Below are positions 215 through 13,689 of a DNA stretch of 15,560 nt, piece by piece. This DNA is from Candidatus Micrarchaeota archaeon. Lineage in GTDB: Archaea > Micrarchaeota > Micrarchaeia > Norongarragalinales > UBA8480. Below the pieces are notes generated by a model that had not been told where the DNA came from, did no database searches, and worked only from the letters and a program-made list of their open reading frames with translations. Location: assembly GCA_043805855.1 (NCBI GenBank), contig JAZDHP010000006.1, positions 1 to 15,560 of the forward strand. Reading direction: 5' to 3'. The position numbers and the translations under genes were made by a program. Within the stretch, counting starts at the first letter, position 1. Each line of letters starts with the position of its first letter.

Positions 215-1579
215 ATGACCAAGTGGACAAAGTGGTTTTCTCGAGAATACGGAGTACAATACTGTCAATACGGATTTGACTGCGTTGGCAAAACTCAAGA
301 GCGATTCTACGGCGGGTTTGTTACAAACAGCGTAATCATACCAGAACAGAAAAACCAAGCAATGTACATCCAAGCTGAAGAATGGGACAACTTTTTGAAA
401 AAAACACTATTACATTACCCAACAACACGCGATAAAAAACGCTTTTTCAAAGAATTCAAAAAATTTGGGCGTAAGTATGTTTTAACCTCAAAGAAAAGCT
501 CGCGCGGCTTACGCAAGAAAACCAACGCGGAGTTACTGCAAATTTACGAAAATTACTTGCAAATTTTTCTAGATTACACTTCAGGGATAAGCGTAGCATT
601 TAATTTAAACGAAATACTCGGACAAACAGCTGAAGAAATTCTTAACAAAAAACAGGCAAACGCGGAAATCGCAGCTGCGCTGCTTAAACCATCTGAAGAA
701 ACTGAAATTTTCAAACTACAAAAAATTGCTTTTCAACTAAAAACAAGCAAACCTTCACAAGAACAATTGAAAGAAATTGTAAAACAATACAACTGGATGC
801 CTTGCCTAGACATAATGAATGACCCTTGGACAATTCGCGATTTAGAAGAATTCATCGCAAATGCAACAGAACAAAAGCAAACAATACCCGCAAATGAAGC
901 AGCAACACAGCTTGGCCTAAACAAAAAGGAAATTAAATTCTTCGAATTAATGCGCGTCGTTGCATACATTAAAGACTTGCGCGACGAATATCGTAGAAAA
1001 GGAGTTTTTTACAGTAGAAAAATGTACGGCGAAATTGCAAAACGTGCAGGAATAACAACAAAACAAATCGCCTACGCGACAAACGAAGAAATAAAACAAT
1101 TCCTCACAAACAACACGCCTTTTGACTTGAATAAAATAAAAGAAAGGATGAATGGTTTTGCACTTTACAAAGAAAACGACAAATTCATTATTCTAACTGG
1201 AAGCGAAGCGCAGGCGTTTAAACAAAAATGCGGGCTAGATTCACAATACAGTGGCATTTCAAGCGTAAAAGGAATAGTTGGCTCAAATGGAAACTGCACT
1301 GGACCTGCAAAAATAATTCACGGCGTTGAAGATTTGAAAAAAATCAAAAACGGCGACGTAATGATTGCAATTACAACCCACCCAGACTATGTTCCAGCAA
1401 TGCACCTCGCGGTTGGAATTGTTACAGACGAAGGCGGAATAACTTGTCACGCGGCAATTGTATCGCGAGAATTAAAAAAACCATGCATAGTTGGAACGCA
1501 CATTGGAACAAAAACTTTCCAAGACGGCGACGTTGTTGAAGTTAACGGAACAACTGGAGAAGTGAGAAAAATACAATGA
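215..1579 (+). CDS. PEP-utilising enzyme mobile (phospho-His swivel) domain protein with large N-terminal region; no ATP-grasp domain
   Basis: The C-terminal ~100 aa contain GDVMIAITTHPDY...TDEGGITCHAAIVSRELKKPCIVG (phospho-His motif). The stop overlaps the rpe start (ATGA, 1576-1579). Confidence 0.85.
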   Translation: MTKWTKWFSREYGVQYCQYGFDCVGKTQERFYGGFVTNSVIIPEQKNQAMYIQAEEWDNFLKKTLLHYPTTRDKKRFFKEFKKFGRKYVLTSKKSSRGLRKKTNAELLQIYENYLQIFLDYTSGISVAFNLNEILGQTAEEILNKKQANAEIAAALLKPSEETEIFKLQKIAFQLKTSKPSQEQLKEIVKQYNWMPCLDIMNDPWTIRDLEEFIANATEQKQTIPANEAATQLGLNKKEIKFFELMRVVAYIKDLRDEYRRKGVFYSRKMYGEIAKRAGITTKQIAYATNEEIKQFLTNNTPFDLNKIKERMNGFALYKENDKFIILTGSEAQAFKQKCGLDSQYSGISSVKGIVGSNGNCTGPAKIIHGVEDLKKIKNGDVMIAITTHPDYVPAMHLAVGIVTDEGGITCHAAIVSRELKKPCIVGTHIGTKTFQDGDVVEVNGTTGEVRKIQ

Positions 1580-2226
1580 AAAAAACTTCAATAAAAATAA
1601 AAGCTTCTTTCTTAACCGCAACGCGAAATTGGCCGAAGTTGAAAAAACAACTCGCGCCGCTAGTTAACCAAAAATTAATTGACGGCTTTCACGTTGACGT
1701 GATGGATGGCGAATTCGTCGACGAATACACGTTGAACTGGATGAATGAAAAATTCGTAAAGAAATTACACCACGCTTTTCCAAAAATGTTCATCGAAGTA
1801 CACTTGATGACACAATTTCCAGAAAACTACGCTCACGAATTTAGCAACGCTGGCGCACAGCGCATCTGGTACCACGTTGAAGCGTTCCACCACGAAAAAC
1901 TACTCAAGCACAACGCGGGAAAAGCTGAAGTCGCACCTGCAATTTCACCGCATACTCCACTCAGCGTTTTGAAAAAACCAAAAAGCGTCTTAGTGATGGC
2001 TGCACAGCCTGGCAAAGGTGGACAAAAACTACTTCCGGCAACTTACGACCGCGTGAAAAAACTACGTGTAAAGTTTCCAAAGGCAACTATTTCAATTGAC
2101 TGCGGCGTAAATATAGAAAACATAGCGAAGTTACAAAAAGCTGGCGCGAGTGAAGCAGTTGCAGGCAGTACAATTTTCAAAGGAAACCCGACGAAAAACG
2201 CGTTAGAATTAAAGCGCAAAATTTGA
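1576..2226 (+). CDS. rpe: Ribulose-phosphate 3-epimerase
   Basis: Motifs HVDVMDGEFV, EVHLM, VMxxxPGKGGQ, IDCGVN (DGG variant) and VAGSTIF. Lies next to transketolase. Confidence 0.93.
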   Translation: MKKTSIKIKASFLTATRNWPKLKKQLAPLVNQKLIDGFHVDVMDGEFVDEYTLNWMNEKFVKKLHHAFPKMFIEVHLMTQFPENYAHEFSNAGAQRIWYHVEAFHHEKLLKHNAGKAEVAPAISPHTPLSVLKKPKSVLVMAAQPGKGGQKLLPATYDRVKKLRVKFPKATISIDCGVNIENIAKLQKAGASEAVAGSTIFKGNPTKNALELKRKI

Positions 2227-2229
2227 AAC

Positions 2230-2478
2230 TTATTGTTTATCTTTGTGGTACAAATCTAAGAAAATTAGTTTATCTTCAGTTTTAATGTACAAATATGAAA
2301 GCCTAAACGGCGGAACGTACACTTCACGCGTTCCTTTTCGCGAATAACGCATTGGTTTGCCAATTTCTGGAAAATTAACAACTTTAGCAATTTGCTTCTT
2401 GACTTTTGTTTTCAGTGAAGCGTCTTTAATTTTCAAAACTAGCTTTTCAAAAGTAGGTTCAAAAAAGACCGTTACCAT
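2230..2478 (-). CDS. Type II toxin, RelE/ParE family
   Basis: 82 aa and basic, with PEIGKPMR...GTREVYVPPFRLSY...FLDLYHKD, typical of archaeal RelE/ParE toxins. Overlaps the upstream antitoxin by 7 nt. Confidence 0.85.
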   Translation of the reverse strand: MVTVFFEPTFEKLVLKIKDASLKTKVKKQIAKVVNFPEIGKPMRYSRKGTREVYVPPFRLSYLYIKTEDKLIFLDLYHKDKQ

Positions 2479-2750
2479 TTCTCTAGTTCCTTCAAAAATT
2501 CATCTTTATCGCGTTCTTTGAATAACCCGCGTTCGTATCTTTGAAGCGCCGCTTCAGTTCGCTTAGCAAAAAGTAAATCTGCAGCTAAATTCTTATACAA
2601 GTCACTAGCTTTTTTAACTATAAGTTGCCCGTCAAGTTTAATTAAAACTAAACTTTGCCCCTCACTAAAGTCCTTCCGAAACTCTACAGGAATAACAACT
2701 TGCCCCTTTGAACTCATTTTAGTCACTGCAATATTCAACATTTCAACCAC
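2472..2750 (-). CDS. AbrB/MazE/SpoVT-family DNA-binding protein (antitoxin); start may be ATG at 2741
   Basis: KMSSKGQVVIPVEFRK is the swapped-hairpin AbrB motif. Has an acidic C-terminal end (DKDEFLKELEKW) and lies directly upstream of the toxin. Confidence 0.88.
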   Translation of the reverse strand: MVEMLNIAVTKMSSKGQVVIPVEFRKDFSEGQSLVLIKLDGQLIVKKASDLYKNLAADLLFAKRTEAALQRYERGLFKERDKDEFLKELEKW

Positions 2751-2753
2751 ACA

Positions 2754-2769
2754 GTAAGATTGATCTTAC
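2754..2769. promoter_or_regulatory. Palindromic operator, probable TA autoregulation site
   Basis: GTAAGAT-TG-ATCTTAC is a perfect 7-bp inverted repeat between the minus-strand TATA box and the antitoxin start. Confidence 0.7.
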
Positions 2770-2773
2770 CTAA

Positions 2774-2787
2774 AATATAAACCTTTC
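2774..2787 (-). promoter_or_regulatory. BRE-TATA promoter of the TA operon
   Basis: The minus strand reads GAAAGG-TTTATATT, ending 24 nt upstream of GTG 2750. Confidence 0.7.
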
Positions 2788-2810
2788 TACAATCACGTTA
2801 AAGCGCCAAC

Positions 2811-2818
2811 TTTAAATG
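2811..2818 (+). promoter_or_regulatory. TATA box for transketolase (probably leaderless mRNA)
   Basis: TTTAAATG at -30..-23 from ATG 2841, with no SD in between. Confidence 0.55.
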
Positions 2819-2840
2819 TACAAAAAACGTAACGCGTTCT

Positions 2841-3704
2841 ATGCAGTTTAAGAAAGTAACTAGCGAAAAGCAGTTGAAACTAATTGCCAATAGCCTACGC
2901 CAAGACGTTGTGAAGATGTTATGCGAGGCAAAAAGCGGGCACACTGCCGGATCTCTCGGAATGGTAGACGTTTTCACTGCGCTTTACTTCGCTGTGGCAA
3001 ACCACGACCCGAAAAACCCAAAGTGGGACAAGCGCGATAGAGTTGTACTTTCAAACGGCCACATTTGCCCCATTTGGTACGCTACGCTAGCACAGTGCGG
3101 CTACTTTCCAAAAAAACAACTAATGACCTTGCGTAAACTCGGTTCTCCTTTACAGGGGCACCCACATTACGGCGAAGTACCTGGAGTTGAAAACAGCGGC
3201 GGGCCACTATCGCAGGGCATTTCAATTGCAATTGGCATGGCGCTAGCCGCGCGAATGAACAACGAAGAGCACACGATTTACTGTTTGACAAGCGACGGCG
3301 AACACGACGAAGGCCAGTACTGGGAAGCACTAATGTTTGCAGGTAACCACCACCTAGATAATTTATGCGTCGTTGTTGACCGCAATTATATTCAAATCGA
3401 CGGCAACACAGAAGAAATAAACGCACTGCAGCCACTAAAAGAAAAATACCAAGCGTTCAAATGGAACGTAATTGAAGTAAAAGGCAATGAAGTTAGCCAC
3501 GTTGTAAGCGCGTTGCAAAACGCTGGAAAAGCAAAAGGCAAACCAACAGTAATAATTGCAAACAACATTCCAGGCAAAGGAGTTTCCTTCATTCAAAATC
3601 GATTCGAGTGGCACGGCAAAGCACCAAACGAAAAAGAAGCTGCAATTGCGCTGAAAGAATTGGAAAGCGAAAGAAAACAAATACAAGCCGAAAAAATCCT
3701 ATAG
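2841..3704 (+). CDS. tkt: Transketolase, N-terminal (ThDP-binding) subunit
   Basis: Motifs SGHTAGSLG, RDRVVLSNGH, LQGHP, SDGEHDEGQYWEA...N (ThDP motif), GKGVSF and WHGKAP. Confidence 0.96.
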   Translation: MQFKKVTSEKQLKLIANSLRQDVVKMLCEAKSGHTAGSLGMVDVFTALYFAVANHDPKNPKWDKRDRVVLSNGHICPIWYATLAQCGYFPKKQLMTLRKLGSPLQGHPHYGEVPGVENSGGPLSQGISIAIGMALAARMNNEEHTIYCLTSDGEHDEGQYWEALMFAGNHHLDNLCVVVDRNYIQIDGNTEEINALQPLKEKYQAFKWNVIEVKGNEVSHVVSALQNAGKAKGKPTVIIANNIPGKGVSFIQNRFEWHGKAPNEKEAAIALKELESERKQIQAEKIL

Positions 3705-3719
3705 GTAATAATTACAAAC

Positions 3720-4703
3720 ATGAAATTAAATAAAAAAATGAAACTGGCAAACGCGTCGCAAAGCGCGGAAAAGAAGTCAACTCGCGACGGCTACGGCAAA
3801 GCAATGGTAGAACTAGGTGAAAAGAACAAAAATGTTGTTGCGCTGTGCGCGGATTTAACCGAATCAACTCGTTTAGAGTGGTTCAAAGAAAAATTTCCTG
3901 AACAGTTTATTGAAACAGGCGTAGCTGAACAAAACATGCTCGGCATGGCTGCAGGCCTAGCGCTAAGTGGAAAAATTCCATTCGCAAGTTCATTCGCAGT
4001 GTTCTCACCAGGAAGAAACTGGGACCAACTACGCGTCGGCGTTTGCTATACAAATGCAAATGTAAAAATTGCAAGTAGCCACGCTGGCTTAACTGTCGGC
4101 GAAGACGGAGCAACCCACCAAGCACTTGAAGACATTGCAATAACCCGTGTTTTACCTAATTTAAAAGTAATTGTACCTTGCGATTTCGAACAAGCGAAAA
4201 AAGCGACAATTGCAGCTGCAAAAGACAAATCACCTTGCTATTTGCGCTTCGGCAGGGAAAAAATGCCACAAGTTACAACTGAAAACACTCCATTCGTAAT
4301 TGGAAAAGCCGATATTTACGTTGAGGGAAGCGACGTTGCAATAATTGCATGCGGAATAATGGTAAACGAAGCACTCAGTGCAGCGAAAATGCTAGAAAAG
4401 AAAAAAATAAACGCTGCTGTTGTAAATTTACACACGATAAAACCACTTGACGAAAGTACAATTATTTCAATTGCAAAGAAATGCGGCGTCGTAATTACAG
4501 TTGAAGAACATCAAATGAACGGCGGAATGGGAAGCGCAGTTGCGGAGCTATTAAGCGAAAATTACCCAATTCCATTGAAACGCATTGGTGTACGCGATTC
4601 ATTCGGAGAAAGCGGAACACCAGAACAGCTTCTTGCAAAATACGGCTTAAATGCTGAAAATATCGCGAAAAGTGCTGAAAATATTTTGAAATTAAAAAAA
4701 TAA
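3720..4703 (+). CDS. tkt: Transketolase, C-terminal subunit
   Basis: Motifs TRDGYG, ADLTEST, GVAEQNM, HAGLTVGEDGATHQALED, TIKPLD and VEEHQMNGGMGSAV. Confidence 0.96.
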   Translation: MKLNKKMKLANASQSAEKKSTRDGYGKAMVELGEKNKNVVALCADLTESTRLEWFKEKFPEQFIETGVAEQNMLGMAAGLALSGKIPFASSFAVFSPGRNWDQLRVGVCYTNANVKIASSHAGLTVGEDGATHQALEDIAITRVLPNLKVIVPCDFEQAKKATIAAAKDKSPCYLRFGREKMPQVTTENTPFVIGKADIYVEGSDVAIIACGIMVNEALSAAKMLEKKKINAAVVNLHTIKPLDESTIISIAKKCGVVITVEEHQMNGGMGSAVAELLSENYPIPLKRIGVRDSFGESGTPEQLLAKYGLNAENIAKSAENILKLKK

Positions 4704-5053: not shown

Positions 5054-5770
5054 ATGGCGAAAGTTGTACTTGTATGGAACGAACACCCGACGGAAGTCGT
5101 AGCTGGTTTCCACGCGAGGAAAGTTGCGCAAATTCTACGAGAAAAATACGGACACGAAGTTGTAGTTGAAAAAATACCCGCAGCTGAAACTAATTATGGA
5201 ATAGCTAGAAAAATTCCAACTAGCAGAAAAAAAGCATCAACAAAAGTAGCTATACAAGCTATACTGCAGAGACTAGGCCAACGAGATTCAACATTGAAAC
5301 TAACCCAGAAAATGGCGCTAAAACACAATGCAATGGCATTTAACTTTCACGCCTCTGGAGCGCTAGCACTTGGCGAAGCACTTATAAGAAGAGCCAGTGC
5401 CTTTAGAATTGGAAAACTTATTGCATCTGATGAATTAAACTCAAGAACTACCTCGCCATATGAAATTGAATTCCATCAAAAACCAAACAAGCCATATGCC
5501 ATATCTATTGAAATGCCGGGAATGCTTTTTTGGTTACGCGGAAGCGTCGGAAAAAGAAATAAACAGCAAATAAAAAAAGCACAAAAAGAATTACTTGACT
5601 TGCAATATAACATGCATAACCCATTTGGCGCAGGCGCTAGCTTGCACGCCGATTACCAAAGAAACGTAATGAGACTCACTAGCCGAGCACAACGCAAATA
5701 CATTTCTCCAATTATTTCCGAAAAAATCGCAGCAGCGATACACGAACGAATAACAGCTAGGCGAGCATAA
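5054..5770 (+). CDS. Hypothetical protein, possible M14/succinylglutamate-desuccinylase-like Zn hydrolase fold
   Basis: 238-aa ORF with a TATA-like TTTTTTAA at 5025-5032. Has HxxE (HPTE) after an N-terminal beta strand, then FNFH and SIE motifs. Confidence 0.6.
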   Translation: MAKVVLVWNEHPTEVVAGFHARKVAQILREKYGHEVVVEKIPAAETNYGIARKIPTSRKKASTKVAIQAILQRLGQRDSTLKLTQKMALKHNAMAFNFHASGALALGEALIRRASAFRIGKLIASDELNSRTTSPYEIEFHQKPNKPYAISIEMPGMLFWLRGSVGKRNKQQIKKAQKELLDLQYNMHNPFGAGASLHADYQRNVMRLTSRAQRKYISPIISEKIAAAIHERITARRA

Positions 5771-7379: not shown

Positions 7380-7468
7380 ATTTACAAAAACACACCTTGT
7401 AATAATAGTTAATTATACCAAAATTTAAAACAATAAAGAAGTTAAACCTTTACCAAATACTCGGTTTT

Positions 7469-8236
7469 TCACCTTTTTAACGCCCTTTTAGCAACTCCAG
7501 TGAATTCCACGTCGCTGTCTTTCAACGTGCGGAACGGTTGTGCTGTTAGAGATTCTTCCAAAACGTGTGCCGCAATGCCTGCACTTCTTGCCAACGCGAA
7601 GAAACCCTTACCAAACTTATAATCAATACCCAATTCGCACAACAACGCAGCAACTGCGCCGTCAACATTTAAACATAGTTTCTTGCCGCTTGTTTTCTCC
7701 AACGCTTTTTCAAAATCCTCTGCAAATTTACAGTACTTGCCATAAATTTTATTCTCCTTCGCGATTTGGAACAACTTTTGAGTACGCGGGTCGATTGTGT
7801 AAACCTTATGTCCATAGCCTGGAGCGCGTTTCTTCTCTTTTTTCAACTCAATTGCAACTTTTTCTGGGTCAACGGCAACGTTTTCCATGAATAATTTCGC
7901 CGCGTTGTCAATTGCACCACCGTGATAATCCCCAATTGAAAGAATACCAGCGGCCATAGCGCTGTTAAAAGTGTTTCCAGCTGAATACGCATAGCGCGCT
8001 GCAACAATTGACGGAACGTTAATGCGATGCTCTGCACACGCTACTAACATGGCGTCGAGAACCTGCCGCTGTTCCTTTGATGGCAATTCACCTTTGATAA
8101 GAAGATAAATTTGCTCAGTGAAAGTGACTTTGCCGATTAAATCTTCCAAGTTATAGCCGCGAATGTAACTCTTCTCGTCAACATGCTGAGAAATAGCAGT
8201 TTTAAAAGACTTTTCTTCAGTTTTCTTTTCAGTCAT
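7469..8236 (-). CDS. ccl: Citryl-CoA lyase (stand-alone citrate-synthase-like domain)
   Basis: 255 aa with IRGYNLEDLIG, EHRINVPS, HGGA, PGYGHKVY..DPR, NVDG and ARSAGIAAH. Too short for citrate synthase and co-operonic with CoA-ligase subunits. Confidence 0.88.
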   Translation of the reverse strand: MTEKKTEEKSFKTAISQHVDEKSYIRGYNLEDLIGKVTFTEQIYLLIKGELPSKEQRQVLDAMLVACAEHRINVPSIVAARYAYSAGNTFNSAMAAGILSIGDYHGGAIDNAAKLFMENVAVDPEKVAIELKKEKKRAPGYGHKVYTIDPRTQKLFQIAKENKIYGKYCKFAEDFEKALEKTSGKKLCLNVDGAVAALLCELGIDYKFGKGFFALARSAGIAAHVLEESLTAQPFRTLKDSDVEFTGVAKRALKR

Positions 8237-8239
8237 TTT

Positions 8240-8839
8240 TCAATTCACCTTAAAGTTTAATTTAGATTCTTTTTCCAAAGCGCTTTCAAACACAAATTTT
8301 AAGTGCTCGTAAGATTCACGCATTTCGTCCTTGCATTCTTGGATTGTCAGCACGTTCCACTTTTCTTCAATCTTGTGAAAAACGTAAGATAAAGATTTTG
8401 AAAAAGAATCACTGCGCTTTCCTTCAATCCAAAGCAAATGTAAACTACCAATTGGCGGAAGGAATTTATACGCATCAGCGTTTGCGACGATTTCGCCTTC
8501 TAAATATTTATGCACCTTAGCATGATGTTCGCTCATAACTTGAAGTGATTTTTCAGCAAATTCCTTTGAAGCTCCAGCATCGCTAAGCACCTCGCGAGCA
8601 GCTACTAAACTTTCTTTAACGTGGTCTTGAACGCGGTTCTCTCGAAGACACGGGCCAATTCGCAAGTCACACAACCAAAGCGCAGTTTCAACTATTTGCT
8701 CGTCGCCCTTCATCTTTTTAGCTAGTGAAATTGCTTTTTCAATTGCCAAACGAGTGTAAATTTCTGGCGGCGCGTTGTTGTTCTGCGCTTCGCGTAACCC
8801 AACTTCGCGAATTGTTTGAATTGTTGTTTGACTTTCCAT
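8240..8839 (-). CDS. HD-superfamily-like protein with degenerate HD motif
   Basis: The pattern LAKKMKGDEQIVETALWLCDL...DH...EHH...EIVANADA matches HD-domain spacing, but has LCD in place of LHD. Confidence 0.65.
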   Translation of the reverse strand: MESQTTIQTIREVGLREAQNNNAPPEIYTRLAIEKAISLAKKMKGDEQIVETALWLCDLRIGPCLRENRVQDHVKESLVAAREVLSDAGASKEFAEKSLQVMSEHHAKVHKYLEGEIVANADAYKFLPPIGSLHLLWIEGKRSDSFSKSLSYVFHKIEEKWNVLTIQECKDEMRESYEHLKFVFESALEKESKLNFKVN

Positions 8840-8843
8840 TTTA

Positions 8844-9737
8844 TCACAGCACTTCTTTTAGTTTTTCAACTATTTCATGATGCGCTTCGGCAACTAACGC
8901 ACCTGCGTCGGCAAGCGCTTTTTTCTTTGCCTGTGGGCTGCCAGTTGAACCTTGTATAATTGCACCAGCATGTCCCAACTGCATGTTCTTTGGCAAGTAA
9001 TCCGCAAATAGCCCAGCAACAAACGCAACTACTGGTTTTGTGATTATTTTTTTCTTTATCAGTTCAGCGGCTTGCTCTTCGTACGTGCCGCCGAGTTCGC
9101 CGAACATTACGATTGCTTTGGTTTCCTTGTCGTTTTCAAATAGTTGCAACGCGTCTGGAAACGGCGTACCTGCGAGTACGTCACCGCCAATGCCAACTGC
9201 AGTACTCTGACCGTAGCCTGCTTGGCGCAATAACCACGACGTTTCGTTGGTCATTGACCCGCTCTTTGAAACAACGCCGATATTGCCCCTTGCGTAAATT
9301 CTATCCGGGTTGTTTCCCCCAATTGGGCCTAGCTTGCATTCGCCTGGCGTAATTATCCCAACGCTAGTTGGTCCAACAATGCGCGCTTTGCAACGAACAG
9401 CTTCGGCAATTACAATTGAAGTGTCAAAAATCGGCATGCGTTCGGTAATCACGTCAATTAGTTTTATCCCATTGGCCATCGCTTCGAGACAAGCGTCTCT
9501 AGCTGCAAATGGAGGAACATAAACAACCGAAGCATTAATACCGCTGTGATTAGCAAGCGCTTCTTTTACAGTGTCGTAAACTGGAATGCCACTCACTTCT
9601 TGCCCGCCTTTTCCGGGCGTAACGCCTGCGAGAATCTTCGTGCCGTAAGCTTTCATCTCCTCGCTGACCTTTGCTGCTTCGCGGCCAGTAATTCCCTGGA
9701 TTAAAACTTTAGTGTTCTTATTAACAAGAATGCTCAT
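8844..9737 (-). CDS. ccsB: Citryl-CoA synthetase small subunit (SCS-alpha/SucD-like, phospho-His subunit)
   Basis: IQGITG CoA-binding loop, GVTPGKGG, SKSGSMTNE, GIGGD, GELGGTYE and GHAGA (phospho-His). The CCS assignment comes from the partner subunit and the adjacent lyase. Confidence 0.8.
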   Translation of the reverse strand: MSILVNKNTKVLIQGITGREAAKVSEEMKAYGTKILAGVTPGKGGQEVSGIPVYDTVKEALANHSGINASVVYVPPFAARDACLEAMANGIKLIDVITERMPIFDTSIVIAEAVRCKARIVGPTSVGIITPGECKLGPIGGNNPDRIYARGNIGVVSKSGSMTNETSWLLRQAGYGQSTAVGIGGDVLAGTPFPDALQLFENDKETKAIVMFGELGGTYEEQAAELIKKKIITKPVVAFVAGLFADYLPKNMQLGHAGAIIQGSTGSPQAKKKALADAGALVAEAHHEIVEKLKEVL

Positions 9738-9738
9738 T

Positions 9739-10983
9739 TTAGTTTTTCACCTTTTTTGCAGGTTTAGCGCTTGATTTGCTAGTTGTTGCTACTCCCTTTT
9801 TAGCTTTGTACTTGTTTGCGAGTTCAACCATTATCTTTGCAGTTGAAGTCATCGGCGTGTCCGCACCGTAAAGGTGAAGATCAAGGCCAATTTCTTTTGC
9901 CAACTTGCGCATGATTTCAAAACCTTCTTTTTCTCCCGGACCAGCTCGGCGAATAACAATTGGAAACGCTGGCTTAATCTCACGCAGCGCTTGTGCAATG
10001 CCTTCAAACGTCACGTCAACGCGAGTGTTACTTGCAATTCCACCAGCAATCCAACAACCGTTTAACCCCGGCTTGCTGAGAATAACTTTTGTCAATTTGT
10101 ACATTTTTTCCGTTGGAGGGTTTCCGCCGTATTCAGTGTAATTCGCTGGCTTTCCACCAGCAACAAGCAACGCGTCTGTATTTGTCAATGACCCGCCACC
10201 GCCTGAAGTCATCATTGCAATATCTCCGTCAAGTTCAATATATTTTCCCGCAATACCACGGTGGTCGCCTTCGTCGATTTTCTTCGCGTCCAACTCGCGC
10301 TGTGTTGGCAAACGGTCAAACGCACTGCGTTGTTTAAACGTGAAATCTTTATGACGGTAAAGCGCATCGTCGTCCAAGATCATCGCAGTTCCAGCTGCAA
10401 CTACACTCCCGTCAGCAGTTAAACATAATGGATTAATCTCTACAATCGTCGCATCGCAGCCGACAAAACACTTGTACAACCGCGTTAGTGCGTCGGCAAC
10501 TTTTGGCATTGTTTCTCCAGTAAATCCAGCTTGCTTGCACAGTTCTCTTGCCTTCCATCCCTGGAGCCCGTCGAGAGGGTCAACTGGAAATTTCACTAAC
10601 TTTTCAGGATGATTCTTCGCCAACTCTTCAATTTCAATCCCGCCTTCGCTGCTTATCACAACAACGGGTTTCTTCTGCTGATCGTCGTAAACAATACTCA
10701 AGAAATACTCCGCCGTGATGTCAACTTTATCTTCAATGTAAACCTCGTGAACTGTTTGCTCGAGGATTTTCTTGCCAAGCATCTGACTAGCGGCGGCTTT
10801 TGCTCCTTCAATACTATCAACAATTTTAATCGCGCCTGCTTTTCCCCTTTTGCCAGCTAGTACCTGCGCCTTTACAACTCCTGCGCGATCTACTTCTTCA
10901 ACTTTTTGAAACACTTTACCTTGCGGTATAGCTATACCATACTTTGCAACAAGTGCCTTTGACTCATATTCGTAAAGTTTCAT
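9739..10983 (-). CDS. ccsA: Citryl-CoA synthetase large subunit (ATP-grasp + ATP-citrate-lyase-type citrate-binding domain)
   Basis: MKLYEYESK, VVKAQVLAGKRGKAGAI and EINPL mark the ATP-grasp domain. The C-terminal SGGGGS, ANYTEYGGNP, GGIASNT and IRRAGP follow the ACL pattern, not the SucC pattern. SD GAGGAG at 10997-10992. Confidence 0.82.
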   Translation of the reverse strand: MKLYEYESKALVAKYGIAIPQGKVFQKVEEVDRAGVVKAQVLAGKRGKAGAIKIVDSIEGAKAAASQMLGKKILEQTVHEVYIEDKVDITAEYFLSIVYDDQQKKPVVVISSEGGIEIEELAKNHPEKLVKFPVDPLDGLQGWKARELCKQAGFTGETMPKVADALTRLYKCFVGCDATIVEINPLCLTADGSVVAAGTAMILDDDALYRHKDFTFKQRSAFDRLPTQRELDAKKIDEGDHRGIAGKYIELDGDIAMMTSGGGGSLTNTDALLVAGGKPANYTEYGGNPPTEKMYKLTKVILSKPGLNGCWIAGGIASNTRVDVTFEGIAQALREIKPAFPIVIRRAGPGEKEGFEIMRKLAKEIGLDLHLYGADTPMTSTAKIMVELANKYKAKKGVATTSKSSAKPAKKVKN

Positions 10984-11121
10984 GAAATATACTCCTCGTA
11001 TTAATTATTACAAGAAAATCTAGCCGACAAACCTTTAAAAAACCGACGAAAAACGAAGCCATGTACGGCAAAGAGCGTGAACGCATTGGTTTAAACTTTA
11101 AAAACATCTAAACAAATAGCA

Positions 11122-12513
11122 ATGGAAAATTACACTTTATTCGGCTCATGGGAATCCTGCCCACTATTAGCAGGGCACCAATGGGTTAATGTCAAGGCCA
11201 ATAAAAACTTGTTAAAAATCTGTCCAATTGAACGAAAGCTAAAGTACGTTTGCAAAAACGGCAGCCAATATCTCTTTCTTGAAAATAACTATTTAACTGA
11301 ATTAAAAAAATGGTGTAGCGAAAATGAAAACAACTCCGCGTTTTTCCAAAAGCACCTGCGCAATTTCCACACAAAAGCTGAACTAGTAAAGAGAAAAATC
11401 GACACAATAACTCGAGTAAAGCCGCCGAAGTTAACTGACGAGGAACTCGCCGTAGTTTACAATAAAGTAGTTGAACAAATAAACGAAATAACCCCGTTCG
11501 ACCAATTCGGAATGATCACTGAGTCAATATTCGTTGAAAAATTGTCAAAAATAATTTCCAAAGACGCAATTGCCGCCGCAACAATGCCGCCGTGGAGTTC
11601 AACAACAGTAAAAGAAGAACTAGCGGTCGTAAACGCGGCACTTGAAAGTATTACAAATCCAAGCGCAATTGACAAAGGCACAGTACATTTAGCAGAACAC
11701 TATGGCTACATTCCAGTTTTTTGCTTCAACCAAAGCTGGAACGAAGAACACTACGAAAACGAAATTAGCGAAAAGGCAAAACTTGGAAGGGAAAAGTTAG
11801 AACAGCGCAAAACTGAGTTGGAAAACTTTGAAAAAACAACGCGGGAAAAAATCACCGCTGCAACTGCCGGCATTAATTCACCATTACCTGAAATGCTTCA
11901 AGTGCTTTCATTCACGCGCAACGAAGCCGAACTTGTACTTAGTTACGGCAACTGGAAAATGCAATCCTTTTACAAGGAGATTTGTAAACGCCTTAGCATC
12001 TCCGCCGCACAATTGATATTTTACACTCAAGAAGAACTGACAAGCGCAATTATACAAAGAAAAGCAAACGCGGAAATGCTAAACAAACGCAGCACAAGCG
12101 CAATTGGAATTTACACAGACTGCCACAGCGAGCGGCTGCTAGAAGAAAAAGAAATAAATGAGCTGATGAAAAACGCTGCGGTAAAAAGCGGCGCAACTCA
12201 ACAACCAATGTGCGCTTGTCCGGGAAACGCAACTGGAAAAATACGCATAGTGCGAAATGCTGACGATATACTTAATTTTCAACAAGGCGAAATTCTCGTT
12301 GCAAAGTGGACTTGCGTTGACTTTTTACCCGCGATGAAAAAAGCAGCTGCGTTTATCACAGAAGGCGGTGGAATAACGTCACACGCCTCAGTAATTGCGC
12401 GCGAGTTAAACGTACCGTGCGTTATAGGTTACAAAAACGCGACAACAGCGTTCAAAAATGGCGACGTTGTTGAAGTGAACGCGGAACAATTAAAAGTCGT
12501 AAAAGTGAATTAA
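11122..12513 (+). CDS. Second PEP-utilising enzyme mobile-domain protein; no ATP-grasp domain
   Basis: C-terminal GEILVAKWT...ITEGGGITSHASVIARELNVPCVIG. Same architecture and size as 215..1579. Confidence 0.85.
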   Translation: MENYTLFGSWESCPLLAGHQWVNVKANKNLLKICPIERKLKYVCKNGSQYLFLENNYLTELKKWCSENENNSAFFQKHLRNFHTKAELVKRKIDTITRVKPPKLTDEELAVVYNKVVEQINEITPFDQFGMITESIFVEKLSKIISKDAIAAATMPPWSSTTVKEELAVVNAALESITNPSAIDKGTVHLAEHYGYIPVFCFNQSWNEEHYENEISEKAKLGREKLEQRKTELENFEKTTREKITAATAGINSPLPEMLQVLSFTRNEAELVLSYGNWKMQSFYKEICKRLSISAAQLIFYTQEELTSAIIQRKANAEMLNKRSTSAIGIYTDCHSERLLEEKEINELMKNAAVKSGATQQPMCACPGNATGKIRIVRNADDILNFQQGEILVAKWTCVDFLPAMKKAAAFITEGGGITSHASVIARELNVPCVIGYKNATTAFKNGDVVEVNAEQLKVVKVN

Positions 12514-12519
12514 ACTAAA

Positions 12520-13689
12520 ATGGTAGCAGCAACTGAAAGAATAACTAATCCAATTTTTTCTGCAAAGACAAGGCTAGTTTTCGCTGAACTTGACCGTAGT
12601 TTACCTGTTGACGAAAAAGCATTGGCTGAAATGGAGCGGAGAAAAGTTATAATCCGCGTGAAGAACCACGCCGGACTAAGGAGTAATTTTGAAGAAGCTG
12701 GAAAAAAGCCAGAAGAATATGAACACCTCTACGCAATTCCCTTCCGGAAACCAGTACATCCCCTCGAAGTACCTGAATCGCGCACGATTCATCGTAGAAG
12801 TATTCACACGTTTAACTTGCCAAATCGACAATTTGTGTTTAAGGGAACTGGCGTAGATGATGCGCCAGTTAGTTTCGGCCGCCGGACTCACAGTATACGC
12901 GAACAAGAATTTTACGGCGGGGCTACTCTCGAAGGTATTAAAGCTGCAGTTGAAACTCTACAAACTCTAGAGCAAGAGTATGAAACTGCTAAACTAGAAA
13001 AAGATCCAATTGTAAGCTGGGCAAAAGAACACGGCGTAAAAGAATTGCCAGTTATAAAACACGCTGCAGTGTTCAAACCCCTGCAATTTGCGGCATTACC
13101 TAAATGGCATGAAAGTGGAAAACGTAGAGTCGCGATAACCAAAGCAGAATTTGACGCACATGGACTCGGTAACTTTTTTGGTGAGGAAAGAGTACACACA
13201 TACTCGGCTAGCCGCCCTGAAAGAATAAGCGAATTTGCTCTTTCAGACCCAACAAAAAACTGGATAAGAAGCTACATTAAAGTGAAAAACATAGACAAGC
13301 GTACAAAGCGCAAGTTACTAAAACAATTTGTTGTGCGAGGACTACTATTGCTGCACATTGCAGACAAGAGCAAAATTGGTTTATGGCAAGATAGAATGGG
13401 CTCTCCATTTGCACAACGTAATGCTAGCCCAGTTGAATTCTTTGACTTCGATACCGGGCATAATTCAAATTTGCGCAGTCCCAGCGAAAGAGCAGAAGCA
13501 ATTGAAGAATTTGCTGAAACAATTGACACATTTGGAAAGAAGCTAAATGACAAAAGAAAGGAACGCAGTGAATATCTGCGCGGAGATTTGCAGCGGTATA
13601 TTTACGCGGCGTTAAATCACGCCCACAAAAACAACCTAAAAGAAATGGAACAAGAACTAGACAAAATAATTAACCGTAGCTTACGTTAA
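12520..13689 (+). CDS. Hypothetical protein, possible atypical kinase-like (SelO-like) fold
   Basis: 389-aa ORF 6 nt after the previous stop. Motifs FVFKGTG and LLLLH...RN....FFDFD. Confidence 0.6.
   Translation: MVAATERITNPIFSAKTRLVFAELDRSLPVDEKALAEMERRKVIIRVKNHAGLRSNFEEAGKKPEEYEHLYAIPFRKPVHPLEVPESRTIHRRSIHTFNLPNRQFVFKGTGVDDAPVSFGRRTHSIREQEFYGGATLEGIKAAVETLQTLEQEYETAKLEKDPIVSWAKEHGVKELPVIKHAAVFKPLQFAALPKWHESGKRRVAITKAEFDAHGLGNFFGEERVHTYSASRPERISEFALSDPTKNWIRSYIKVKNIDKRTKRKLLKQFVVRGLLLLHIADKSKIGLWQDRMGSPFAQRNASPVEFFDFDTGHNSNLRSPSERAEAIEEFAETIDTFGKKLNDKRKERSEYLRGDLQRYIYAALNHAHKNNLKEMEQELDKIINRSLR

Follow-up and report, generated by a model that had tools for sequence, protein, structure and literature searches.

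A putative citryl-CoA synthetase and citryl-CoA lyase operon in a Micrarchaeota archaeon without detectable aconitase and isocitrate dehydrogenase

Which reaction is carried out by a two-subunit acyl-CoA ligase encoded together with a short citrate-synthase-like protein in a Micrarchaeota archaeon, and in which metabolic context? The question is raised by a 15,560-nt stretch of DNA (the window), which is the entire contig C6 of genome G000, a Micrarchaeota metagenome-assembled genome (MAG) of 1,031,631 bases in 67 contigs, 92% complete and 1.2% contaminated. At positions 7469-10983 the listing of open reading frames (ORFs) shows four head-to-tail ORFs on the minus strand, with a spacing of 1, 4 and 3 nt. 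The same spacing was given by the original prediction, made from the sequence letters, which described the locus as a three-protein citrate-cleavage operon. The large and small citryl-CoA synthetase (CCS) subunits together with the citryl-CoA lyase (CCL) meant by that description were recovered; the fourth gene (8240-8839), which it left uninterpreted, is real and conserved. The four genes are the following.

9739-10983, minus strand: ccsA, putative CCS large subunit, 414 aa, with an ATP-grasp N-domain and a citrate-binding C-domain of the ATP-citrate lyase (ACL)/CCS type
8844-9737, minus strand: ccsB, putative CCS small subunit, 297 aa, SucD-like, with a CoA-binding domain and a GHAGA phosphohistidine loop
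8240-8839, minus strand: X199, 199 aa, all-helical, apparently a divergent HD-superfamily fold, between ccsB and ccl
7469-8236, minus strand: ccl, putative CCL, 255 aa, short citrate-synthase-like protein

The three enzyme genes are present and intact and belong to the families just named, and the genome holds no citric acid cycle around them. We consider it probable that the operon is a split ACL system, used for stand-alone citrate cleavage outside any citric acid cycle. Judged from their sequences, the identity of the three enzymes as CCS large subunit, CCS small subunit and CCL can be proposed with high confidence; as to the direction of the reaction and the physiological role, our confidence is evenly divided.

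The two ligase subunits and the lyase

In Pfam searches, CcsA matched ATP-grasp_2 (PF08442, 195.2 bits) and Citrate_bind (PF16114, 97.2 bits, cut-off 26.8), with no match to Ligase_CoA (PF00549). PF08442 and PF16114 were also found in 120/120 of its best homologues, the best listed CCS-type proteins, which were compared with sets of 8 ACL-beta and 5 SucC proteins. The SucC models TIGR01016 and NF001913 gave the highest NCBIfam rows for CcsA, yet the cut-offs of both were missed by a wide margin (296 vs. 375.55 and 291.5 vs. 370). When the whole protein was compared with the PDB, the best match was the CCS large subunit of Hydrogenobacter thermophilus (6hxq_B, 270.4 bits, E 2.3e-79), followed at lower scores by Thermus thermophilus succinyl-CoA synthetase (SCS) beta (231 bits) and Chlorobium ACL beta (175.1 bits). 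The C-domain alone gave 144.9 bits with CCS, 83.2 with ACL and 55.5 with SCS, and the N-domain alone 178.3 bits with T. thermophilus SCS beta, 107.9 with CCS and 80.9 with ACL. The mean identity of the N-domain was 40.8% to 31 CCS-type, 37.5% to 5 SucC and 25.3% to 8 ACL-beta proteins, and that of the C-domain was 60.9, 27.8 and 33.3%, respectively. Considering these domain-wise scores and identities, the ATP-grasp half of CcsA is SCS-like, and its other half is specific to CCS and strongly conserved. Its Lys/Ser-rich tail KKGVATTSKSSAKPAKKVKN (residues ~395-414, window 9739-9801) lies outside the homologue matches, which cover 95-96% of the query.

The C-domain motifs were compared in the family alignments, using 120 CCS-type and 5 SucC sequences.

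Motif 1: window GGGGS; CCS-type consensus GGGgS; SucC NGAGL
Motif 2: window PANYTEYGGNPP; CCS-type consensus PANYTEysGNPP; SucC PANFLDVGGGA
Motif 3: window GGIASNT; CCS-type consensus GgtANfT; SucC NIFGGI
Motif 4: window RRAGP; CCS-type consensus RRgGP; SucC RLeGT

The motifs of the 8 ACL-beta proteins are alike to those of the CCS type, so that all four motifs of CcsA are of the CCS/ACL type, in accordance with the earlier claim that they resemble ACL and not SucC. Human ACLY holds citrate by residues that we take, following the ACLY literature, to be G309, N346, T348 and R379. The equivalents of G309, T348 and R379 are kept in CcsA, and that of N346 is Ser318.

CcsB contains the CoA_binding (PF02629, 95.8 bits) and Ligase_CoA (PF00549, 71.8 bits) domains, and is the sole Ligase_CoA match in the genome. 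It came close to the SucD models and passed neither of them (327.3 vs. a cut-off of 336 for the equivalog model, and 325 vs. 353.2). In the PDB its matches were SCS alpha of Aeropyrum (2yv2_A, 285.4 bits), the CCS small subunit (6hxq_A, 230.3 bits) and ACL alpha (174.9 bits). G255, H256, G258 and A259 of the GHAGA loop are invariant in 21/21 aligned operon partners. Only 41 residues follow H256 up to the C-terminus at residue 297, and the lyase has an ORF of its own, as had been read from the letters.

Ccl passed the NCBIfam citryl-CoA lyase model NF004869 (288.3 bits vs. a cut-off of 212), and reached at most 98 bits on the citrate synthase models, whose cut-offs are 332-594. Its best PDB match was CCL of H. 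thermophilus (6hxp_A, 238.9 bits, E 4.5e-70), the next being a citrate synthase at 88.2 bits. The protein covers positions 7-57 and 164-349 of the 357 positions of the Citrate_synt profile. Six residues, H105, H143, D192, R151, R217 and R236, are invariant in 20/20 aligned relatives, and the conserved residues align with HGGA, GHRVY and NVD of Pyrococcus furiosus citrate synthase. We assume that H105, H143 and D192 are the catalytic His/His/Asp and that the three arginines bind oxaloacetate.

Related operons were collected by a scan of species-representative genomes, which gave 480 candidates and 465 related stretches, and the best 80 of the 465 were analysed. Within these 80 the closest relatives are Micrarchaeota (82, 67 and 61% identity), and the other hosts are Nanohaloarchaea, Woesearchaeota, Aenigmatarchaeota, Iainarchaeum, many phyla of the candidate phyla radiation (CPR), Chloroflexota, Acidobacteriota and one Heimdallarchaeote. 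The order ccsA-ccsB-ccl on one strand was found in 60/80 loci; among the remaining 20, some end at contig edges, and those of the Acidobacteriota type have no ccl within 6 kb. Domain content, curated cut-offs, the matches with 6hxq_B and 6hxp_A, the catalytic residues and the conserved gene order agree with the original identification of CCS large subunit, CCS small subunit and CCL. The accompanying expectation that annotation pipelines would name such genes sucCD and citrate synthase was borne out in part. At NCBI, homologues of CcsA are called 'succinate--CoA ligase subunit beta', 'acetate--CoA ligase family protein', 'ATP-grasp domain-containing protein' or 'hypothetical protein', and the genes of the 61% identical Micrarchaeota operon 'succinate--CoA ligase subunit beta', 'CoA-binding protein' and 'citryl-CoA lyase'. 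The large subunit is thus mislabelled as SucC beta, but the lyase is named correctly by NCBIfam and NCBI, and the relatives at the Joint Genome Institute (JGI) carry the correct name 'citryl-CoA synthetase large subunit'.

Two unrooted trees were calculated, a 94-row tree by quick search and a second one with 45 rows, with ACL genes from the same order and SucC from five other genomes. The SucC clade was supported at 99-100 (Shimodaira-Hasegawa-like approximate likelihood ratio test, SH-aLRT) and the ACL-beta clade at 100. The window CcsA lies outside both, so that the grouping with SucC which had been named beforehand as the result that would speak against the identification was not obtained. 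It groups with two Micrarchaeota genomes (99), beside Chloroflexota and Acidobacteriota sequences. As far as these alignments go, the trees show a large subunit that is neither SucC nor AclB and, being unrooted and without Aquificae sequences, are silent on which of the types is ancestral and on the evolutionary intermediate suggested by the original prediction.

Genome context, proposed reaction and alternatives

Genome content was checked by targeted family searches and local tblastn, in G000, in a genus sample of 4 genomes (G000 with G001, G002 and G003) and in an order sample of 61 genomes (G000-G060). No aconitase or isocitrate dehydrogenase (IDH) was found by either method in G000, which is 92% complete. 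Family searches of the same genome gave no second Citrate_synt and no second Ligase_CoA; neither SucC over the cut-off nor class II fumarase or fumarase C was found, class I fumarase and fumarate reductase being outside the search.

Aconitase and IDH are present in all three other genomes of the genus. Both flanks of the G002 aconitase gene map to contig C39 of G000, where ~1.2 kb of small ORFs stand between them (C39:7181-8427). The IDH neighbours of G001, G002 and G003 map to contig C59 (22912-25773), which carries in its place a gene for a lectin-domain protein, an unnamed gene and a gene for a methyltransferase. No remnant of aconitase or IDH was detected at C39:7181-8427 and C59:22912-25773. 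Since both flanks are present without the genes, these are real losses and not assembly gaps; and since aconitase and IDH are absent where the congeners carry them, there is no reductive tricarboxylic acid (rTCA) cycle. This extends to the whole genome the earlier remark that no other rTCA gene lies near the operon, together with the genome check that had been proposed: aconitase, IDH, SucC and fumarase C were not found anywhere in G000.

Neither SucC over the cut-off nor a canonical citrate synthase was found in any of the 61 genomes of the order (0/61 in both cases). The Citrate_synt matches in these genomes are only short CCL ORFs (6 genomes) and fused ACL-alpha ORFs (8), and in the ACL-type genomes aconitase and IDH adjoin the ACL genes. 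Because aconitase and IDH are kept in the congeners and citrate synthase is missing, CCS/CCL or ACL is their only candidate for a citrate-forming enzyme, and the same may hold for all order members that keep aconitase and IDH. In an Iainarchaeum locus (L066:2788-12501) we observed aconitase, IDH, ccsA, ccsB, ccl, malic enzyme, a cupredoxin-like gene and the alpha subunit of ADP-forming acetyl-CoA synthetase (ACD), in this order; the module is therefore, in some DPANN archaea, still tied to the citrate-to-2-oxoglutarate branch.

The genome contains several possible sinks for the products of citrate cleavage. A thiolase gene is present. On contig C35 (L152:676-2867; L154:1-3523), HMG-CoA synthase, HMG-CoA reductase and mevalonate kinase genes are clustered, and an NADP-malic-enzyme-like gene adjoins an Ldh_1 gene. 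The single POR-type oxidoreductase is a four-subunit pyruvate oxidoreductase (POR); its thiamine-pyrophosphate-binding beta subunit, on C32 (L005:2594-3660), carries an intein splicing domain (Pfam Intein_splicing, 50.1 bits). Gln or Arg at the switch position separates lactate dehydrogenase (LDH) from malate dehydrogenase (MDH). The Ldh_1 protein passes the NCBIfam L-LDH model (372.6 vs. 303.55) and has Gln at this position (ANQKPGQTR), and on these two grounds we read it as LDH and not as MDH. As the protein is LDH-type, a citrate-malate-pyruvate shuttle via MDH was dropped.

On this basis, and by homology with CCS and CCL of H. thermophilus and with ACL, the following scheme can be proposed. 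In CcsA, the SucC-like ATP-grasp domain would bind ATP and the ACL/CCS-type C-domain would bind citrate. CcsB would be phosphorylated on His256 and bind CoA, and citrate, ATP and CoA would be used by the two subunits to form citryl-CoA. This product would then be split into acetyl-CoA and oxaloacetate by Ccl, a protein with the fold of a truncated citrate synthase and the His/His/Asp triad. Citrate would come from outside, and the enzymes would most likely run in the cleavage direction. Acetyl-CoA may enter the mevalonate pathway and end in isoprenoid lipids; the gene 89 nt downstream of ccl encodes a geranylgeranyl reductase. Malic enzymes of the type found on C35 decarboxylate oxaloacetate, and oxaloacetate could be converted in this way to pyruvate, which could in turn give lactate through LDH or acetyl-CoA through POR.

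A number of observations weigh against the proposed stand-alone citrate cleavage. With respect to the enzymes, the N-domain of CcsA and the whole of CcsB resemble SCS more than the CCS of H. thermophilus, and the N346 equivalent is Ser in 11/120 CCS-type proteins, all near kin of the window, with Asn in the other 109. The tree holds no Aquificae sequence, and the CCS-type rows do not fall on one side of a branch in the best tree, because two long branches join a short-branched bush at different points; the approximately unbiased (AU) test does not reject their union (p 0.109). With respect to metabolism, the need for an ATP-consuming route is not obvious, because POR already yields acetyl-CoA from pyruvate. 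No citrate carrier of the CitMHS or DASS families was found in 12/12 genomes searched, G000 included. That no oxaloacetate source for the reverse direction was found in G000, which favours cleavage, comes from a search that did not include phosphoenolpyruvate (PEP) carboxylase, PEP carboxykinase and aspartate aminotransferase. Finally, the genome is 92% complete, and literature searches returned no published assay of a CCS or CCL enzyme from DPANN archaea or CPR bacteria.

Other readings of the same genes have to be weighed against this one. An ordinary SucCD beside a truncated citrate synthase would have the superfamily and the subunit plan of the window. It would also account for the SucC models being the top NCBIfam rows of CcsA, for CcsB nearly passing SucD (only 9 bits under the cut-off), for T. 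thermophilus SCS beta being the best solved relative of the CcsA N-domain (178.3 bits, with an ATP-grasp mean identity to SucC of 37.5%), and for the SucC name given by NCBI to the 61% identical relative. We rejected this reading on cut-offs, motifs and tree and regard it as very improbable: both SucC models stay far under their cut-offs (296 vs. 375.55), CcsA has no Ligase_CoA domain, its C-domain is 27.8% identical to SucC with 4/4 motifs unlike it, it falls outside the SucC clade (99-100 support), and the lyase passes the CCL model. In addition, of five other genomes that carry a CCS-type gene, three also encode a true SucC, distinct from it and over the cut-off. Another possibility is that the substrate of the ligase and the lyase is not citrate but a hydroxy-acid related to it, such as methylcitrate, homocitrate, citramalate or malate. 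The Ser for Asn at the N346 equivalent in the near kin of the window (11/120) would fit with it, and so would the fact that our searches found no citrate-producing or citrate-importing gene. It seems nevertheless quite unlikely, considering that 3/4 citrate-site equivalents are kept, that the C-domain has 61% mean identity to the CCS type, and that the partner Ccl scores 288.3 bits with the model for citryl-CoA lyase and 238.9 with the H. thermophilus CCL, with its triad and its arginines (H105, H143, D192, R151, R217, R236) invariant.

If the substrate is citrate, the module could still serve another pathway or run the other way. In H. thermophilus, CCS/CCL is the citrate-cleaving step of the rTCA cycle (PDB titles; accessible part of the preprint 10.1101/2022.10.25.513756), and the same part of the preprint counts Micrarchaeota among the taxa 'theoretically capable' of it. 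A reductive cycle for CO2 fixation, as in Aquificaceae, was rejected here on genome content and synteny and has a next to negligible probability: aconitase, IDH, SucC and fumarase C were not found, aconitase and IDH were lost at syntenic sites, and the genome, of 1.03 Mb, has one POR-type oxidoreductase. The enzymes might instead run in reverse, Ccl condensing acetyl-CoA and oxaloacetate to citryl-CoA and CcsAB releasing citrate while making ATP. The module would then be an ATP-conserving citrate synthase that replaces the missing ACD in acetyl-CoA-linked substrate-level phosphorylation. The citrate-cleavage reaction is close to equilibrium, and ACL is said to work towards citrate in Desulfobacter. 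In G000 neither ATP-grasp_5 (ACD) nor ACD alpha was found by family search and tblastn; ATP-grasp_5 (ACD beta) was over the cut-off in 0/4 genomes of the genus as compared to 44/61 of the order, and AMP-forming acetyl-CoA synthetase was absent from 12/12 genomes searched, G000 included. The congeners, moreover, keep aconitase and IDH in an order with 0/61 citrate synthases. On the other side, no oxaloacetate source was found for a reverse reaction, the sole Ldh_1 protein being LDH-type and no HMGL-like carboxyltransferase being detected in G000 by family search. With aconitase and IDH lost from this genome, citrate formed in this way would lead no further and would have to be excreted, and no carrier was found among the CitMHS and DASS families. 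The complementary pattern of ACD and CCS amounts to about four lineages, and genome G052 has both. Altogether, we regard the reverse reaction as rather unlikely, and prefer cleavage of citrate outside any cycle.

The fourth gene and the HAD-family partners

X199 gave no Pfam, NCBIfam or PDB sequence match (Pfam and PDB even at E 10), and the Pfam HD model PF01966 was likewise not matched at E 10. The AlphaFold2 (AF2) model is all-helical, with a best predicted local distance difference test (pLDDT) score of 82.8, the other four models giving 58-66. In Foldseek the best match was the HD protein YpgQ of Bacillus subtilis (5dqw_A, E 1e-4, template modelling (TM) score 0.63-0.66), and the top matches 5dqw_A, 2pjq and 3djb gave TM 0.59-0.69 and E from 1e-4 to 6e-3. 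The model thus suggests a divergent HD-superfamily fold, similar to YpgQ-type HD phosphohydrolases (B. subtilis YpgQ, 5DQW; TM 0.63-0.66) in its all-helical structure and its length. X199 differs from them in that it lies within a CCS/CCL operon and has other residues at the position of the first His and at that of the dyad His. In X199 and six clade members (7/7) position 28 is Tyr (Phe in one) and the dyad is Cys/Gly57-Asp58; D58, H73, H105, H106 and D122 are retained. In more distant relatives the dyad is mostly Met-Asp (72/86), and weak homologues in related genomes pass the Pfam HD model in 6/6 cases.

A word-indexed search gave five close homologues of X199, 52-78% identical. A profile search of 1.84 billion representatives gave 239 proteins at E <= 0.001, of which one was near the family's own level (243.5 bits) and the next reached 131.3 bits. 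At least three contigs, all of one subclade, retain the gene at this place between ccsB and ccl: locus L156 has the order ccsA-ccsB-X199-ccl, X199 being set off from its two neighbours by 10 and 13 nt, and L155 holds ccsB-X199. Two more homologues of X199 are on contigs that have the same lengths as contigs bearing close CcsA homologues. In G002, of the same genus, ccsB and ccl are 47 nt apart with no X199-like gene between them. Where two contigs share ~80% identity in CcsB and Ccl, their X199 proteins share ~56%; X199 thus evolves faster than these enzymes yet stays intact and in place.

Another phosphohydrolase fold was observed in the related operons. An ORF of the HAD family of hydrolases (Pfam HAD_2) stands between ccsA and ccsB in 25/74 loci that hold both genes (L060:7209-7964, L075:7143-7793 and 23 more), mostly in Nanohaloarchaea, with two Woesearchaeota and one Woykebacteria. 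Two proteins (P0038 and P0042, 561-566 aa) are HAD-CcsA fusions. In G000 a HAD homologue (32% identity) lies on contig C48, outside the operon.

The HD and HAD genes of these operons could be working partners of the citrate-cleaving enzymes and not passengers, a suggestion that we make as a speculative one and consider unlikely. Such a partner might control or proofread a phospho-enzyme or acyl-phosphate intermediate; alternatively, it might hold ligase and lyase together at the site that the fusion linker takes up in ACL. If this were true, the split ACL-like systems of DPANN archaea would have a fourth component that is as yet undescribed.

Operon borders, known systems and significance

The operon is bordered by two intergenic regions.

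10984-11121, no strand: 138 nt between ccsA and the divergent gene at 11122-12513, probably the promoter region of the operon
7380-7468, no strand: 89-nt spacer 3' of ccl, with T-rich tracts and then a TTTAAAT box before the geranylgeranyl reductase gene

On the minus strand, a consensus-level reading places TTTTAAAG ~50 nt, an A/T-rich stretch ~20 nt and GAGGAG 9 nt upstream of the ccsA ATG, and the 89-nt spacer is probably the operon end. Scans for bacterial-type terminators (6 found vs. a shuffled mean of 7.0) and for bacterial promoters (no excess over the shuffled expectation), both of a type unsuited to archaea, were negative.

The gene at 11122-12513 (plus strand), transcribed divergently from ccsA, is a paralogue of the one at 215-1579 (plus strand); the products (463 and 454 aa) are 24% identical. 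In both, a helical N-terminal part of ~340 aa without family name is followed by a PEP-utilizers mobile (phosphohistidine) domain at the C-terminus, and neither an ATP-grasp nor a PEP-binding domain was matched in Pfam and NCBIfam. Proteins of this type are frequent among DPANN and CPR and are faintly linked to the fourth domain of rifampin phosphotransferase (Atlas). The plus-strand genes at 5054-5770 (238 aa) and 12520-13689 (389 aa) gave no Pfam or NCBIfam family at usable E-values. Ribulose-phosphate 3-epimerase and a transketolase split into N and C genes are encoded at 1576-4703 (plus strand), an ordinary archaeal non-oxidative pentose phosphate set (Pfam).

As compared to the CCS/CCL of H. 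thermophilus, the window likewise encodes three separate proteins, and those of H. thermophilus are the best solved relatives of its large subunit and lyase; both also have the motifs of the citrate domain, the GHAGA loop and the catalytic triad of CCL. The differences are the N-domain of CcsA and CcsB, which are nearer to SCS, the length of the small subunit (a 353-aa chain vs. 297 aa), the Ser of GGIASNT in place of the consensus Asn, the HD-fold gene between ccsB and ccl, and the context without an rTCA cycle. The two-subunit ACL (AclB/AclA of Chlorobium limicola, 6HXJ, and Methanothrix, 6HXI) shares with the window the chemistry, the homologous domains and Citrate_bind, and occurs in 8/61 genomes of the same order. 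In these 8 relatives, however, the SucD-like and CCL-like parts are fused (ORFs of 462-637 aa), whereas in the window they form two ORFs, of 297 and 255 aa, which are separated by another gene. ACL-type proteins score 210-287 bits on Citrate_bind as compared to about 100 in the window, and they form a separate clade (100 support) whose genes, in the relatives, adjoin aconitase and IDH.

Homologues of CCS/CCL in DPANN archaea (Micrarchaeota, Nanohaloarchaea) and CPR, misannotated in GenBank as SCS and citrate synthase, have been described in the accessible part of the preprint 10.1101/2022.10.25.513756, and they belong to the same protein family and host groups as the window operon. The accessible part of PMC8091004 likewise mentions CCS, CCL and ACL genes for a few vent DPANN MAGs. 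As far as the accessible preprint text goes, the arrangement is therefore already known for DPANN and is not a new kind of system. That text treats distribution and phylogeny, and contains no mention of HD-fold or HAD inserts, of aconitase and IDH being lost in this species, or of an order without citrate synthase. Our additions are modest: a conserved HD-fold insert, the loss of the neighbouring cycle enzymes, and the presence of split and fused forms in one order without citrate synthase.

The identification is useful for annotation, because the large subunit is still named SucC in public records. With both split CCS/CCL and fused ACL and no citrate synthase in 61 genomes, the order could be a test bed for the scenario in which SCS gave rise to CCS and CCS to ACL. 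As for the organism, a host-dependent archaeon with a 1-Mb genome keeps an ATP-dependent citrate-splitting (or citrate-forming) module after having lost the rest of the citric acid cycle, and this retention points to citrate as a traded metabolite, or to the supply of acetyl-CoA for lipid synthesis.

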